A stretch of DNA of 63,158 nt, the filler included, from an uncultured bacterium (GTDB lineage: Bacteria; CAYSBA01): the NCBI GenBank assembly GCA_964429075.1. It is 20 parts of 20 records of this genome, joined end to end, with 100 filler letters (N's around TTAATTAATTAA, not from the genome) between each part and the next. Parts side by side here need not be neighbours in the genome. Positions count along the whole stretch, not along the records: positions 44,967 to 47,941 come from CAYSBA010000237.1; 19 more parts are not named here. One strand, given 5' to 3'. This document shows, one piece after another, positions 3,275-47,941 of this stretch (positions are counted from its first letter, which is position 1; the number at the start of each line of letters is the position of its first letter). The translations under genes were made by a program, and so were the position numbers. A model generated the notes under the pieces. That model saw nothing but the letters and a program-made list of their open reading frames with translations, was not told the origin of the DNA and made no database searches.

Positions 3275-4520
3275 TCTCACAATCGCTATCCTGCAGACAT
3301 TCTACACAAAGTCCGGTTGAGGTATCACACACAAGACCATTCTGGCAGAAATAGAACTGACATTGAGGTAGACATTGGTGTGTCACAGGATGACAACCCT
3401 CTCCATTTGCACAGTCAGCATCAGTGCTACACTCCAGACACTGACCATTGACACATATGTTGGAAGAGCAGTCGCGATTTACCTCGCAACCAGGGACACA
3501 GGATCCATTCTGACATATATGGTTTATTGAGCAGTCATTCTTTGAGAGACATTCAACACATTCAGAGTTAGCAACATCACACAGAAGATTTCCGCAATCT
3601 GAATTGTCGTTACATCCGGGCTGACAGGCTCCAGAAACACAGATGTAGCCATACCCATAGATGTTCTGACAATCCTGGTCGGTACTGCATTCTGGCCCTG
3701 GCACACAGCTGTTGCTATCACATATCATACCAGTCCCACAATCACTATCGGTTTTACATTCTACACACTCTCCTTGTACACAGAAATAGGGAGCACAATC
3801 CTGATCAGTACTACAACCACTATTCTGCTGCTGGCACATGTAATCTACGCATATAAAACCAACCTGACAATCACTATCCTGCCTGCACTCCTGACATTTG
3901 TTGGCAATACAGACAGGCGTCGGATCAGTGCAGTATTGATCGGATGTACATTCCACACAGGTCCCATTTAGACAGGCAGGAGTGGATCCACCACAGTCAG
4001 AATCACTCTGACAGCCGGTTTGATTATTGTCTCTACAAAAGCCGGCTTCACAGATCTGATTACTCTGACAATCTGTATCCCTAAGGCATTGTACACATAC
4101 ATTGTTGTCTGTATCGCAGAGATAACCAGAAGGACACAGATCTTGATTTTCAGAGCTACATTCTACACAGGTGTTGTTGACACATATTCTGTCTGTACAA
4201 TCCTCGTCTTTTGTACATTCCTCTGGTGTTGTACAGCTGTTATCAATACAAACCTTGCCAGATTCACATTCTGCATCGCTTCTACATTCGCCATTAAAGG
4301 GGATGCATGTCGATCTTTTTTGATCACAGATCTGTTTTTCGGTGCAATCAAAATTGTCGCTACACTTAGAAGTGGCTACACATCTTTTATCCTTACAATA
4401 CCAGCCACTTGTGCAATCAGAATCTTTTTCGCATGATTTAGAGGTAACAGGCAGCGACCTTGTGCAGGAGGCTGTTATGGTAAAAAAGACTATCAGAATT
4501 GTTGTAAATACTATTTTCAT
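3275..4520 (-). CDS. Cysteine-rich repeat lipoprotein (CxxDxDC repeats), 3'-truncated
   Basis: SD AAGGAGG before ATG 4520; hydrophobic signal with lipobox ITASC; tandem CxxDxDC-x-C-x-C modules running to the contig end. Confidence 0.75.
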
Positions 4521-4549
4521 AGTGGCCTCCTTACAATAATAAAAATCTC

Positions 4550-5395
4550 TCAATTAAAGAGAAATCCCAGCTTGGTTTGCATGACCCATATACCACCTAT
4601 TGTATATATCCCTTCAAAGGTTATATCAAAGATAAATGAGTTGTATACAAGACCAAAGATTAATCTATCTAATTTTGTCTGCCAGAATGGGAGAGAATCA
4701 AATACAAAATAATCATCCTCAGTCACACCAGAATCATATGGTTTAGGATTTATAACCTTTGATTTTGCGCCAACACCGTTAATATTGAATGTGAAATATG
4801 GAGTAAGTGTAAACATACCTGCAACACCAAATTTTTTACTAATTGTTACATCAAAACCACCGGTGTAGAGATCTGCCTCTCTTAGATTTATAATCTTGGA
4901 GATGCCAAAACCAAATGCTATATCTGGAATAAATTTGAAGCCCTCAACAGGTGCCCATTTACAGCGCGTTCCCATTGCCATCACCTCACTGTTTACAAGC
5001 CACAGCACATTACCACTGAACTCCATACTGAAGGGGATCGCCTTTCTCATCTGTATCCCAATAACGGGAAGGCTGCTCGGCACATTATCGCTTACAAGCA
5101 CTTTGTTCCAGTAACCACTCCCCCCTTTTATACGGGATAAAAGCCCAACAAAACCAAAATCAAAGCCGTTGTATCCTGTTGTATTGGCACCTGAAAGATA
5201 GAGAGGAATAAATGTCTGAGCCAGCTCTTTCATAATATTTTCAAAGTCCTTCTGAGCATCTGGATTATCCGATGGGTTACCTAATTTAAATAACTGAATA
5301 TCATAGGGCATTCTTGCAAAACCCAAAGAGGTGTATAAAATAATTATACAAGTCAGGATAGTAAGTATGAAACATTTCATAAAATGCCGCACCAT
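4550..5395 (-). CDS. Secreted hypothetical protein, probable outer-membrane beta-barrel
   Basis: Signal peptide (SLGFA); alternating hydrophobic strands; aromatic C-terminus (KLGFLFN). Confidence 0.55.
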   Translation of the reverse strand: MVRHFMKCFILTILTCIIILYTSLGFARMPYDIQLFKLGNPSDNPDAQKDFENIMKELAQTFIPLYLSGANTTGYNGFDFGFVGLLSRIKGGSGYWNKVLVSDNVPSSLPVIGIQMRKAIPFSMEFSGNVLWLVNSEVMAMGTRCKWAPVEGFKFIPDIAFGFGISKIINLREADLYTGGFDVTISKKFGVAGMFTLTPYFTFNINGVGAKSKVINPKPYDSGVTEDDYFVFDSLPFWQTKLDRLIFGLVYNSFIFDITFEGIYTIGGIWVMQTKLGFLFN

Positions 5396-31564: not shown

Positions 31565-32368
31565 GATCAAGATCATCCGGCGAGGAGGGCGACCAGCCTG
31601 TTGTATCGAGCCAGCTATTTCTGTCTTCCATACACAGATATACAAATACATCCCTTGCCCTATCTTTTATAGACCAGTACATAGTTCTCAACATATCCAG
31701 TCTAATAGGGCCTGGATATCGAAATTTTCCATCCCTGGCCTTTATGAGGTAAGAATGAAACAGTTTACTGTGTGGATTTTTGACAATCATTCCATAGTAG
31801 GAGTCTGGAGCAAACCTGAGGGTGCCAAGACTGATCCATGCAATCCTGTGTGAATCAATATTATCAAAAATCAAATCAACAACACCCCTATATTCATGTC
31901 GCCATCCATTATAATTGATAATTGGATCAAAATGAAAACCTACAAATCCACCACTGTTGGCCCATCTTTTTGCAGCATATATCCTGTCGATAAGTGTTGA
32001 TGTTGATCTCTCATAATTTCTTATTACTCTCTCTGTGTTTACTGACCATGAGAGTATAACCTTTTGTTTTGCCCCTGGATCTATCTCTGCTACTGTGGCT
32101 TTCTTTGTCTTTATCTCAAGACAAACTCCTCTTAGACCAACTAAAATTGAGCTGAGCCACCTATTTACCGGTATTAGATATTCAAGTATTGCACTATCTG
32201 ACATCTCGCCGGTAGTAATTCGTAATATCCTATCTTTTCTGATTCTTTTTTTTATCTGTTTGGCAATACTTTTAGAACTAAAATTCAGAGTTACAGGGCT
32301 TTTTCTGGCATAACCATGAAGAAAGCAGTATTCACAGTACATCGAACAGCTTTCAAGTATATCAAGGG
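31521..32368 (-). CDS. Spore-photoproduct-lyase-like radical SAM protein, 5'-truncated
   Basis: CSMYCEYC (CxxxCxxC), TGEMSDS, LEIKTK, GFHFDPII, DGKFRY, YLCME. Confidence 0.8.
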
Positions 32369-44966: not shown

Positions 44967-45746
44967 ATTTATCCTCTTTATCCATTCTATTGTAGTATTA
45001 AAATAGTCTCCCTTTTTGTATACCCTATTATAATTGTGTACAGATGGCGGACCATCAAGTGATGTACTTATACCAACATTGTTATCGAGTAAAAAATTAA
45101 ATTTTTCATCGTCCATCAATAATAGGTTAGTCACAACTGTAAACTTTATATCCTTTTGAATATCATCATTTTCATTTCTTATATTGATGTATTCGATCAT
45201 ATTTTTCATAACCTCAAAGTTAGCAAGTGGCTCACCGCCCTGAAATTCTACAGTAAGAAATTTAGGTCTTGACTCTAATATCCTGTCTGCAGTCTTTATT
45301 GCTGTTGCAATATCCATATCAGTCTTATATGCATTCATAGGTGCCCGTGTTACCTGACAGTACAGGCATGTTACGTTACATCTCAAGGTTATTATCACAA
45401 TGTGTAGTTTCGGGCCCCTTATCCTATCGATTTTTTTTAAAAAAAACCTCTCTGTCAATTTATTCTGATCTTCTGTTTCTTTCAGAAACTGCCTCTTTGA
45501 GAGCACCTGATAAAGATTGGAATCTTTATCAAGTCTATTTAACAATAGGTCATGAAATTCGTCTTTATCCAAGATATGGTGATATCCGGCATCGTTTGTT
45601 ATTAAAACCCCGCCGTCTATCTCTTCAAATCTGAAATGATTGAGATGGGAAAGATTTTTTATTGATCTAAAGGTAACCTCATCGATCAATGGATCAGTCT
45701 TTTTCGTTTCTTGATGAACCCTTCTTACTTTCTGTTTCTTTTTCAT
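44967..45746 (-). CDS. hxsB: His-Xaa-Ser system radical SAM maturase HxsB, 3'-truncated
   Basis: FRF...LITNDAG N-terminal region, LHIVIITLRCNVTCLYCQV (CxxxCxxC), VEFQGGEPL, STSLDGP..HNYNR; downstream of an HxS-repeat peptide. Confidence 0.88.
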
Positions 45747-46152
45747 CTTTTACAAATTCCTCAAGATTTTTTCCATATTTTTCTTCCCAAGGAAGTGCAA
45801 TCTCCTCAAAATCCTCAATTTCTTCCTCAAAGTTCATCCCCTCCTCTTCCTGGGTTATCCCAGGGACTTCCTGCACAAAGGCAGCCTGTTGCAGGTACAT
45901 AATCCTTGTCTTTTCATAACGTCTTGTTAGCATGTAACGAATCTGAAATTTTATTAGTTCGTTTAAAAACTCTCCTTCAGGTAGCTCTGATCGATCATTC
46001 TTGTCTTTTGGTTTTAAGAGAATTTTATATTTTCCCTCTTTATCATCTACATCAATAAAACAGTAGTACCTGTTACTGAAATGGTATAGTGTATTTAAGA
46101 CTGGTTCTAACTTAAAGATCTTACTGGATACATCAAAGATATGTTCTTGCAT
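45694..46152 (-). CDS. hxsD: His-Xaa-Ser system protein HxsD with acidic C-terminal tail (alternative GTG start at 46179)
   Basis: LYHFSNRYYCFID...EFLNELIKFQIR...TRIMYL pattern; lies between precursor and HxsB. Confidence 0.75.
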   Translation of the reverse strand: MQEHIFDVSSKIFKLEPVLNTLYHFSNRYYCFIDVDDKEGKYKILLKPKDKNDRSELPEGEFLNELIKFQIRYMLTRRYEKTRIMYLQQAAFVQEVPGITQEEEGMNFEEEIEDFEEIALPWEEKYGKNLEEFVKDEKETESKKGSSRNEKD

Positions 46153-46172
46153 AACTTTGCCTAAAACAGATT

Positions 46173-46517
46173 TTACCACTGGCCATGACTGCCATGACTG
46201 CAGTGAGACCCATGACTATTATGACACCAAGGTGTAGTACTATTATGAACACCACGGCCAGCATAATTACCAAACCAGTTTACATGATTACCCCAATAAC
46301 CAAAACTATTGTGTCCACAGTATTGAGTATGACTGTTACAATGTTGGGCCTGAATGTTTGATGTTATAGCAAAAAGTCCAGCAAGTGTAATTGTGCCAAT
46401 GATCACTTTTGACTTATCTACCTTACCCTCTTCACTCAAAAGGAACATCCTGATGTCGCGCTTTATATCTGGGAATTTTTTATTTACCCTCTTTATGTCC
46501 TTCTTTTGCTTTTTCAT
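46173..46517 (-). CDS. hxsA: His-Xaa-Ser repeat precursor peptide (HxsA-like), 114 aa
   Basis: SD AGGAGG 7 nt before ATG 46517; C-terminus HNS-HGS-HCS-HGS-HGQW; upstream of hxsD/hxsB. Confidence 0.85.
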   Translation of the reverse strand: MKKQKKDIKRVNKKFPDIKRDIRMFLLSEEGKVDKSKVIIGTITLAGLFAITSNIQAQHCNSHTQYCGHNSFGYWGNHVNWFGNYAGRGVHNSTTPWCHNSHGSHCSHGSHGQW

Positions 46518-47559
46518 CTTTTTTCCTCCTATCACTTATCACCTTATGCATACAATATAGCTTTTTTATATTTATGTCAATTTTGTTACAATTTATATTA
46601 TCCTGACCAAGGGCAGAAAGACACAGCATTTTGGTCAAATGATCTTCTATTTTACCACAAATTGAGGGATCATTATTTTTTGCAGCCTTCATAAAATAGG
46701 CAAATGCTTTACAGAACTTTACAGTAGATAATGGGGTATCTTCGGGCAATATATTACAGGCATCTGGATCAGCCTTAAATGGTGCAACAATCTTTGCAAT
46801 GCATTGAGTACGATCTGTCAAACCAACCTTATTACATTTATCAAAAAGATCAATTTTCTTATTTTTAGCTAAAATCGCGTAAAAGTCTTTTACATCCTGC
46901 TCTGTTACCCTGACTCCTTCCTTCATCCTTGACGGATCAAGGAATCCAAGTCTTTTTATTTCGTTTACAACTTCATCTTCGGTCTTTGTCCTTTCTTTTA
47001 ACATTTTTGCAATATTAAAAAAAAGTATAGATGATTCACATATCCCGGCATAACTATACTTCTGAAATCTGTTACATATATTTAGATCTGTATTTTTAAC
47101 AGCCCTACAGATCATCTTAATATCCTGAGCACCATGAATGGTTGTAGAGTATTTATCTGCAAATTCTCCCAGATATTCATCTTTTAAAGAGATCGACTCA
47201 AGGTCTGAAGGGTCCTTATCCTCCACATCCTTCATACAATCGTTAAAAGAATCTCTATATCCTGCGGGTACCTTTGAGAGAGGCATTCTTTTTGTTAAAA
47301 CCGATTTTGCTTCTATAATATCATCACGTGGAATGATCTCATTTTTTAGCTCTTTCGATAGCGGTATCTTTGTTGTATGTTGGGAGTTGTTATCTCTTTC
47401 AGGAGGCATTTCTTTTTTCTCTCCAGTAGTCTTTTGTCCTATGTTTACTTTATTAACAATATTATTCTTTAAATTATTCCTATTTTTATCTGCACTTGAA
47501 CAAGATACAAACACAATTATCAAAGTAAATAAAAACAGGGTCTTAAAAATATACCTCAT
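46480..47559 (-). CDS. Cys-rich lipoprotein of unknown function
   Basis: Lipobox FVSC; repeated D-x-x-[IA]-C...C modules; stop overlaps the start of hxsA. Confidence 0.65.
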   Translation of the reverse strand: MRYIFKTLFLFTLIIVFVSCSSADKNRNNLKNNIVNKVNIGQKTTGEKKEMPPERDNNSQHTTKIPLSKELKNEIIPRDDIIEAKSVLTKRMPLSKVPAGYRDSFNDCMKDVEDKDPSDLESISLKDEYLGEFADKYSTTIHGAQDIKMICRAVKNTDLNICNRFQKYSYAGICESSILFFNIAKMLKERTKTEDEVVNEIKRLGFLDPSRMKEGVRVTEQDVKDFYAILAKNKKIDLFDKCNKVGLTDRTQCIAKIVAPFKADPDACNILPEDTPLSTVKFCKAFAYFMKAAKNNDPSICGKIEDHLTKMLCLSALGQDNINCNKIDINIKKLYCMHKVISDRRKKDEKAKEGHKEGK

Positions 47560-47562
47560 CTT

Positions 47563-47941
47563 CTATCCTCCACAACATATCATATAACCGGTTCTTGGAG
47601 CTTCTGTAAAATTTTCATAAGCAGTTCCTGAACTCCACCACTCTCTAGTACTCCCATGTGTAAATCCTGATGTACCTACATATGTCGTCACATATGTATT
47701 ACTTGGACAATATGTAGTTCCATTACCGTAGTATACCTTTTGACATCCTCCACCACTTCCCCAGCTGTTTCTGCAGTCTGTACCGATACATAGATACCCA
47801 TCAGCCCTTACACTCCCATGAGCATATACATCCTGAGTATGAACCCCACCACTCCATCCAGTGGGATATCCACTTGTTGCACTGTACCCATTGGTGCCTA
47901 TCCTACCAGCAAGATTTATATTTACCATATGAGAAGTTGAG
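47563..47941 (-). CDS. C-terminal fragment of an adhesin/tail-fibre-like protein, 5'-truncated
   Basis: G/S/T-rich; GWSGGVHTQDVYAHG and LCIGTDCRNSW; terminal Cys module ending YMICCGG. Confidence 0.5.

Follow-up and report, generated by a model that had tools for sequence, protein, structure and literature searches.

What does a 2975 bp contig from an uncultured bacterium encode, when nearly all of it is taken up by five genes on one strand and one of these specifies a peptide rich in histidine? The contig lies at positions 44967-47941 of a 63,158-nucleotide stretch of DNA from assembly GCA_964429075.1, the whole of which was analysed and is here called the window. The window consists of 21 short contigs of 2.9-3.2 kb each, ordered from longest to shortest, with 44-N runs around TTAATTAATTAA between them; context across contigs is artificial. 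The locus is exactly one whole contig, bounded at both ends by N-runs. An earlier note on this DNA had proposed a variant of the His-Xaa-Ser (HXS) system, in which radical S-adenosylmethionine (SAM) enzymes act on a precursor peptide; this system was reportedly given its original definition by Haft and Basu (see PMC9062424). In our view, the contig probably represents the front part of an HXS peptide-maturation system of the HxsA4-like subtype, whose modified peptide would be exported to the envelope and there most likely bar phage. The assignment to family and subtype appears well supported by sequence comparison; its function, whether defence, metal binding or another role, we infer by analogy. 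The kind of system is already known, being defined in NCBIfam and functionally characterized in one species, and the present copy is a divergent, incomplete variant of it.

The assignment depended on the margin by which the radical-SAM enzyme matched HxsB, together with the HxsD and HxsA homologues encoded beside it. The 5' part of hxsB occupies 44967-45746 on the minus strand and specifies 260 residues from an ATG at 45746, the C-terminal half (approximately 230 residues) being lost at the contig end. Against NCBIfam, this fragment matched the HxsB model TIGR03978 over profile positions 1-227 of 466 (E = 3.8e-64, 217.2 bits), while the next-best family, CcpM, gave E = 1.3e-26; this bore out the earlier description of a radical-SAM enzyme with HxsB hallmarks. 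The curated cut-off for TIGR03978 is 370 bits, which was set for the whole protein, and the fragment fell below it because half a protein cannot reach a whole-protein value. The Pfam Radical_SAM model matched at 58 bits, and the three cysteines of the CxxxCxxC [4Fe-4S]/SAM motif (C123, C127 and C130; codons at 45357-45380, minus strand) were invariant in 21 of 21 aligned sequences. Among 944 candidates there were 77 full-length relatives with E <= 0.001, of 470-508 residues and 31-45% identity, several of which are annotated as HxsB in metagenome-assembled genomes (MAGs) of Gracilibacteria, Patescibacteria and 'Deltaproteobacteria'. The structural model of the fragment (predicted local distance difference test, pLDDT, 84.1) had three strands and three helices (beta-beta-beta-alpha-alpha-alpha) across residues 38-110, followed by a radical-SAM core. 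A Foldseek search with this model placed CteB first (5why_B, E = 2e-9, 239 columns), then ChlB, anSME, TigE, SuiB and SkfB, and the N-terminal domain is, as modelled, of the leader-peptide-binding kind. At the level of sequence, we regard the identity of the enzyme as HxsB as firm.

A wider scan with an alignment-derived HxsB query brought out at least 600 relatives, spread over Myxococcota, Patescibacteria, Elusimicrobiota and other groups; 55 of the best 80 belonged to Myxococcota, and the remainder came from Elusimicrobiota, Patescibacteria, Omnitrophota and further groups. When 82 HxsB sequences were placed in a tree, the window enzyme occupied a long branch (1.23), unplaced at the base of the non-canonical group. 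The records of loci L038 and L076 bear the titles of Klebsiella pneumoniae and Enterobacteriaceae MAGs; both are rich in GC, with HxsB sequences that clustered with Myxococcota in the tree, and these bins are probably mislabelled. Separately, four Gracilibacteria-like HxsB entries in alignment A1 (P0037, P0045, P0023 and P0040) carried tryptophan where all other sequences carry glycine. Gracilibacteria-like organisms read TGA as glycine, and the substitution looks like TGA translated as tryptophan despite the reading of the host.

The gene immediately upstream of hxsB, at 45694-46179 (minus strand), encodes 161 residues from a GTG at 46179, or 152 residues from an ATG at 46152. What had been called an HxsD-like protein proved to be a clear HxsD homologue by tblastn, placement and motifs, although it scored below the cut-off of the HxsD model, TIGR03976. 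Of 80 related loci (L001-L080), 50 had a tblastn homologue placed immediately upstream of HxsB, the best match being to the L001 protein (E = 1.7e-13), and the homologues from L001 and L036 themselves exceeded the TIGR03976 cut-off with 68-69 bits (68.1 for L001). In an alignment of 22 sequences (A3), F62, N64, R72, A90 and D114 were invariant, a PWEEKY motif was common, and a block of the form G-E-F-x-N-E-L-L...R was shared. This block is the counterpart of the LLNDYxLRE motif that was mutated in a study of the Escherichia coli system (Li et al., Nat Commun 2026, PMC13128918). The clade-specific C-terminal motif reads D-D-P-L-G-I-A-V-P-W-E-E-K-Y-G, and the window version E-E-I-A-L-P-W-E-E-K-Y-G; an annotated canonical HxsD of 96 residues was without the PWEEKYG tail. 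Across the non-canonical clade (L001-L080; for example, L001 7291-7788 and L030 25-375), the HxsD C-terminus was observed to carry a conserved DDPLGIAVPWEEKYG after an acidic linker, and this motif, DDPLGIAVPWEEKYG, may be a docking peptide. The model of the window protein (pLDDT 81.6, with 83-98 in the core blocks) was a small beta-alpha-beta-beta-alpha-alpha sandwich with a ferredoxin-like core; in the sequence, this core is followed by an acidic linker and the C-terminal LPWEEKYG. No solved structural relative specific to HxsD was found in the PDB; the best Foldseek match (E = 0.024) and the best VIA match (Z = 6.8) were to generic ferredoxin- or ACT-like folds. A predicted complex of HxsB residues 1-260, HxsD and residues 1-46 of the HxsA leader scored 0.00, with no verdict.

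The third component is the precursor peptide itself, encoded at 46173-46517 on the minus strand. Translation most probably begins at the ATG at 46517, which has AGGAGG seven nucleotides upstream and gives 114 residues; an alternative GTG at 46535 would give 120. The peptide has a leader (residues 1-37, 46407-46517) with 14 K/R and 6 D/E, a hydrophobic helix (residues 38-52, 46362-46406) that is its hydrophobic maximum, and a core of 57 residues (58-114, 46176-46346) with ten His, nine Gly, seven Asn, seven Ser, four Cys and four Trp, one basic residue and no acidic residue. The helix is followed by an I-Q-A|Q site, and relatives have Ala-x-Ala-like sites at the same place. Six HxS triplets were counted within the core, and the last four adjoin one another at the C-terminus; a count of six was attained in 0 of 20,000 shuffles that preserved composition. 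Towards its front, the first half of the core was rich in Trp, Phe, Tyr, Asn and Cys, and ten triplets of the form [HWFY]-x-[NS] were counted over its whole length (shuffle p = 0.0012). The precursors of relatives were mostly long HGSHGS runs with 9-41 HxS, and the ending ...SHGSHGQW of the window precursor was shared with that of L045. No peptidoglycan-binding or other Pfam domain was present in the precursor.

Homology of the precursor was most apparent in its leader. A hidden Markov model was built from the leader columns of nine relatives, with the window excluded to avoid circularity, and was applied to a database of 13,872 open reading frames (ORFs). It retrieved the window precursor at E = 3.4e-9, the sole match in the window, and found precursors in 15 of the 80 loci, every one downstream of hxsB. 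The consensus K-[IL]-P-x-I-K-K-x-I-K-x-F-L-x-S-E-E-G-K, followed by a hydrophobic helix, was present in the window precursor; E29, E30 and G31 were invariant in the alignment, while K14, P16, K20, F25, L26 and S28 were nearly so. Four of six precursors tested from relatives passed the HxsA4 cut-off. The count of HxS triplets beyond chance and the homology of the leader to HxsA4-type precursors upheld the claim of a His-Xaa-Ser precursor peptide, and, taken with the HxsB margin, the claim of an HXS system. On sequence evidence, both HxsD and the peptide are clear homologues of the HxsD proteins and HxsA4-type precursors whose genes adjoin that of HxsB in Patescibacteria, Elusimicrobiota and Myxococcota.

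The same core could be read differently. Its ten [HWFY]-x-[NS] triplets would suit an ordinary cluster for a RiPP (a peptide synthesized ribosomally and modified post-translationally), in which a bacteriocin-like antagonist is cross-linked at aromatic-x-Asn/Ser, like three-residue cyclophane peptides, and released. The HxsB fragment also matched the cyclophane-forming maturases YhhB (60.5 bits), AmcB (43.5 bits) and FxsB (40.9 bits); its fold resembles those of RiPP maturases, and the formation of a His-to-Lys cyclophane by a radical-SAM enzyme has been reported (PMC11499958). However, the cyclophane-family scores were far under the 217 bits obtained for HxsB, and the cut-offs of those families (445 for YhhB, 425 for AmcB and 370 for FxsB) place the fragment outside them. 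The contig carries no transporter, protease or immunity gene. In E. coli a +8 Da change was described, where a cross-link would give -2 Da, and the product remained in the periplasm (PMC13128918). A released antagonist is, in our judgement, improbable.

The preferred reading, an envelope-directed HXS system, takes its functional part from E. coli, where the hxsD-B-C-A system inhibited 110 of 113 phages by blocking DNA entry, and where defence required all four genes. HxsA of that system consists of a signal peptide, five HxS repeats of basic character and a domain that binds peptidoglycan; it undergoes cleavage, bears on SHRSS a +8 Da change, which is the sole change measured in any HXS system, and is active in the periplasm, while HxsC binds HxsD. 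These statements follow PMC13128918, according to which a survey placed 99.7% of systems in Pseudomonadota, because it searched with HxsA, and found 99.6% to be ordered D-B-C-A. By comparison, HxsB of the window, acting with HxsD and at least one more radical-SAM enzyme encoded off the contig, would modify the HxS and related aromatic-x-Asn/Ser triplets of the 57-residue core in the cytoplasm. The K/R-rich leader would remain inside the cell while the hydrophobic helix (residues 38-52) led the core through the membrane, after which a cut behind I-Q-A would release the core into the periplasm. By analogy with E. coli HXS, the mature peptide would then act in the envelope and most likely hinder phage infection there, and the Cys-rich exported protein encoded next to it may be its anchor or partner. 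The build of the precursor (K/R-rich leader, helix and I-Q-A|Q site) fits the earlier idea of an exported peptide, export itself being predicted from sequence. Envelope defence, as also suggested before, agrees with the role reported for the canonical E. coli system (PMC13128918), and for the window system would hold by analogy.

Several observations weigh against this reading. HxsD of the window reached only 35.6 bits against TIGR03976 (E = 8.8e-9), where the cut-off is 50. The precursor matched HxsA4 (NF038313) with 35.0 bits and HxsA3 (NF038309) with 34.5 bits, at E of approximately 1e-8 in both cases, below the respective cut-offs of 55 and 65, and the HxsA (TIGR03979) and HxsA2 models did not match it; nor was the precursor similar to HxsA of an annotated Aeromonas plasmid operon. 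The gene order, A-D-B, differs from the D-B-C-A of E. coli HXS and was found in 0 of the 15 relatives with the same leader. The core contains a single K or R and the precursor no peptidoglycan-binding domain, where E. coli HxsA has Arg-rich basic repeats and that domain (PMC13128918); consequently, the electrostatic DNA-trapping model proposed for E. coli does not transfer as it stands. The contig ends within hxsB, at residue 260 of approximately 490, so a second radical-SAM enzyme is not visible on it, and a search of the window's 20 remaining contigs revealed no HxsC, HxsB C-terminus or second radical-SAM partner. No mention of HxsA2, HxsA3 or HxsA4 was found in the literature searched, and no HxsA4-type experiment with it. 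Finally, no recognizable defence system was present among 82 neighbouring ORFs from 11 HxsA4-type loci. A scan of these with PADLOC 2023, which contains no HXS model, gave 27 matches at E <= 1e-8, of which 23 were generic radical-SAM cross-matches (20 pVip and 3 PDC-M51A) and four were partial (QueC, BrxL, C3a186 and TPR). The gene order unmatched among relatives and a peptide below every HxsA cut-off also justify the label of 'variant' under which the system had been introduced.

With regard to the missing partner, relatives were informative. The cut-off for HxsC (TIGR03977, 267.9 bits) was reached in 0 of 5 relatives' genomes, the best scores being 188.7 and 161 bits, and the radical-SAM gene adjoining HxsB belonged to another top family in 4 of 4 cases tested (PapB-like, or SbtM/ACGX-like SPASM). 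A partner enzyme is therefore to be expected, but it need be neither a canonical HxsC nor adjacent to hxsB. Arrays of up to six HxsC-like radical-SAM paralogues, each of approximately 300 residues and scoring a sub-cut-off 80-189 bits, were observed in relatives' genomes (G005:C2, 78-84 kb; G003:C2, 123-139 kb; G004:C33, 30-40 kb); in Saccharibacteria and Elusimicrobiota these arrays sit 10-25 kb from HxsB. In the window, a weak match at 32154-32366 was considered as HxsC or the HxsB C-terminus and rejected, since it belongs to a different radical-SAM protein. A radical-SAM ORF with a CxxxCxxC-type start was noted at a contig end (31521-32342, minus strand); it is unrelated to HxsB or HxsC and is presumably of the spore-photoproduct-lyase type.

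Upstream of the precursor gene lies a gene for a Cys-rich exported protein, possibly a lipoprotein, at 46480-47559 (minus strand), with 359 residues and 13 cysteines spaced 11-18 residues apart. It is an orphan: a word search among 5.8e9 proteins matched only the protein itself, a full HMMER search among 1.84e9 proteins gave two marginal matches (E = 9.8e-5 and 7.1e-4), no Pfam, NCBIfam, PHROGs or PADLOC family matched, and its best atlas score (0.85) was to unnamed clusters. A Cys repeat was held in common with P0080 (pairwise E = 2e-10, whole-library E = 7.1e-4). The term 'lipoprotein', applied to it in the earlier note, agrees with a hydrophobic N-terminus followed by F-V-S-C at residues 17-20, but the strict lipobox pattern was unmatched in the protein. 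Beyond it, at 47566-47940 (minus strand), is the 3' part of a gene for a Gly/Thr/Ser/Tyr-rich protein, with 125 residues seen and 6 Cys, cut by the contig end; there is no stop upstream in frame, and so the fragment is probably truncated at its 5' end. No NCBIfam, Pfam, PHROGs or PADLOC family matched it, and its description as adhesin-like had the sole support of a language-model atlas lead (0.85) to PilV shufflon tip adhesins.

These two genes may be mere neighbours, the system proper being hxsA-hxsD-hxsB and whatever follows, and we incline slightly towards this explanation. Neither gene had a homologue in any of the 80 related loci by tblastn (0/80), a result that gives no support to a link between the upstream fragment and the system. 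The Cys-rich protein is an ORFan; a promoter-like site (TTGACA-17-TATTGT, 46552-46580, minus strand; 10 of 12 matches) separates its gene from hxsA, lying just upstream of hxsA within the end of the Cys-rich gene; and a profile of four Cys-rich neighbours from relatives matched the window protein weakly (hhalign E = 0.014, probability 3%, 162 columns). There is also a second Cys-rich lipoprotein-like ORF in the window, on another contig of the same assembly (3276-4553, minus strand, 426 codons, a signal-like start and then many Cys), so that genes of this type may be common in the organism. Conversely, the Cys-rich gene overlaps hxsA by 38 nucleotides and no terminator intervenes. Moreover, N-terminally anchored Cys-rich ORFs occur directly beside hxs genes in L028, L034, L045, L056, L064 and L068 (289-419 residues, 10-16 Cys) and in L003 (1656 residues, 99 Cys), such that 7 of 15 HxsA4-type loci have hxs genes flanked in this way. 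These neighbours fall into at least four sequence groups and have similar Cys spacings of 11, 12 and 18 residues. Among non-hxs ORFs of at least 200 residues, counted over the 15 loci whose precursor has an HxsA4-type leader, 6 of 8 Cys-rich anchored ORFs were within 400 nucleotides of an hxs gene, compared with 22 of 102 for all ORFs (hypergeometric P = 0.0011, with kinship ignored and approximately four independent lineages). The result is a weak hint of partnership from sequence. Where the earlier note had a surface lipoprotein working with the peptide, the recurrence of such neighbours is in favour, and the seemingly unrelated sequences of the relatives' Cys-rich proteins are against.

Cysteine-rich neighbours and a histidine-rich core raise another explanation, that the peptide is a periplasmic buffer or chaperone for Ni, Zn or Cu, with the Cys-rich protein as its metal-handling partner. 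The core has 10 His among 57 residues, 4 Cys, no acidic and one basic residue, and the relatives' cores are the long HGSHGS runs already described. The relatives sit in multi-radical-SAM clusters rather than defence islands, and the only run with the contig is labelled hot springs metagenome. Of 10 Cys-rich neighbours of HxsB that were tested from Myxococcota loci, 5 (from L002, L022, L003, L039 and L007) contained PF11617 (MopE), a 'putative metal-binding motif'. The proteins concerned are large, with PF11617 repeats and 50-99 Cys, and were observed within a few kb of HxsB (L002 5147-7186, L022 5226-7205, L003 2719-7689, L039 10048-13017 and L007 9909-11864). However, PF11617 matches are frequent in the genomes concerned, at 11-37 in each, and L002, L022 and L039 are close kin, so the adjacency may reflect chance or inheritance; we treat it as a hint and not a finding. 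The Cys-rich protein of the window had no PF11617 match, radical-SAM maturation of a simple metal buffer would be left without explanation, and the sole HXS system tested is a phage defence (PMC13128918). Metal handling as the main role seems to us rather unlikely.

A broader proposal may be offered with more doubt than belief, namely that HxsA4-type systems are distinct envelope systems that combine a neutral, His-rich, radical-SAM-modified exported peptide with a fast-evolving fifth component, a Cys-rich membrane-anchored protein. Genes for this component would recur beside the hxs genes in Elusimicrobiota, Saccharibacteria, Myxococcota and the hot-spring lineage of the window, and peptide and protein together would form a metal-dependent or disulfide-stabilized structure in the periplasm or at the surface, acting against phage or otherwise but not through electrostatic DNA binding.

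The layout of the contig, which has a GC content of approximately 33-35%, confirmed that five co-oriented minus-strand genes are packed in the order first described, with almost no spacing between them. The Cys-rich ORF begins 3 nucleotides past the stop of the Gly/Thr/Ser/Tyr-rich fragment. Both hxsA and hxsB begin within the 3' end of the preceding gene, and their start regions (46501-46522 and 45730-45751) share a 22-nucleotide stretch that is 91% identical (AAAAG-ATG-AAA-AAG...), which agrees with the chosen ATGs. No terminator-like site was found in 44967-47941, and Rfam and repeat scans of it gave nothing meaningful. Promoter-like sites numbered 11 against 12.0 expected; since this is not above chance, the site upstream of hxsA is a lead only.

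The contig was present in one run only (X1), as short Logan contigs at a depth of approximately 6, and no RNA dataset was listed as containing it. One 593-nucleotide Logan record extended it by 294 nucleotides beyond 47941, while the Logan contigs of X1 provided no extension beyond 44967, on the hxsB side. Single-protein scans of genome and metagenome contig collections found no close relatives of the contig. GuaA of the host had a best identity of 68% to any protein, the named matches being Thermodesulfovibrionales and Nitrospirota MAGs; by this measure, the host appears to be of an unsampled lineage and not close kin of any named genome.

The locus matters chiefly for what it implies about other systems. 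As far as the available literature indicates, HXS has been tested experimentally in E. coli alone, and the HxsB search reveals at least 600 relatives in other phyla. Precursors of the HxsA4 type are without both pillars of the E. coli model, the basic repeats and the peptidoglycan anchor. If their systems also stop phage, then the mechanism of DNA trapping will have to be revised; should they serve another purpose, then HxsB and HxsD constitute a module of general use in maturing His-rich peptides for export. The contig adds one more, divergent, system of this type, and is too short to decide between phage defence and another role.

In comparison with known systems, the canonical operons are related through their enzymes. 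Relative to the annotated D-B-C-A operon of the Aeromonas plasmid, HxsB of the window had 35% identity (E = 1.8e-45) and HxsD 27% (E = 3e-5). As in E. coli HXS, a precursor with HxS triplets carries an N-terminal export signal, and the enzymes would be cytoplasmic and the product in the envelope. Unlike E. coli HxsA, the window precursor has a long conserved leader ahead of the hydrophobic helix, and HxsD, at 152 residues with an extra C-terminal PWEEKYG, is longer than the canonical protein of approximately 96 residues. The CteB, SuiB, SkfB and ChlB maturases resemble the window enzyme in the predicted fold of the 260-residue fragment and in the logic of precursor plus enzyme; CteB/SuiB-type maturases differ in family, the SCIFF maturase and PapB models giving 75.8 and 78.1 bits against 217.2 for HxsB, and the SPASM half lies beyond the contig. 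Ten aromatic/His-x-Asn/Ser triplets can be made out in the core, as in the substrates of three-residue cyclophane ('triceptide') synthases such as HtkB and HaaB, yet YhhB (60.5 bits) and FxsB (40.9 bits) fall well short of the HxsB score. From its HxsA4-type relatives, the window system differs in a precursor that scores 35.0 bits where 55 are needed, that has 6 HxS triplets rather than 9-41, and that is encoded upstream of hxsD, all 15 relatives having theirs downstream of hxsB. Features in common with those systems (NF038313) are the leader motif, an Ala-x-Ala-like site after the hydrophobic helix, and a run of HxS at the C-terminus that closes with Trp; HxsD is likewise long and bears PWEEKYG, and HxsB belongs to the one non-canonical clade.

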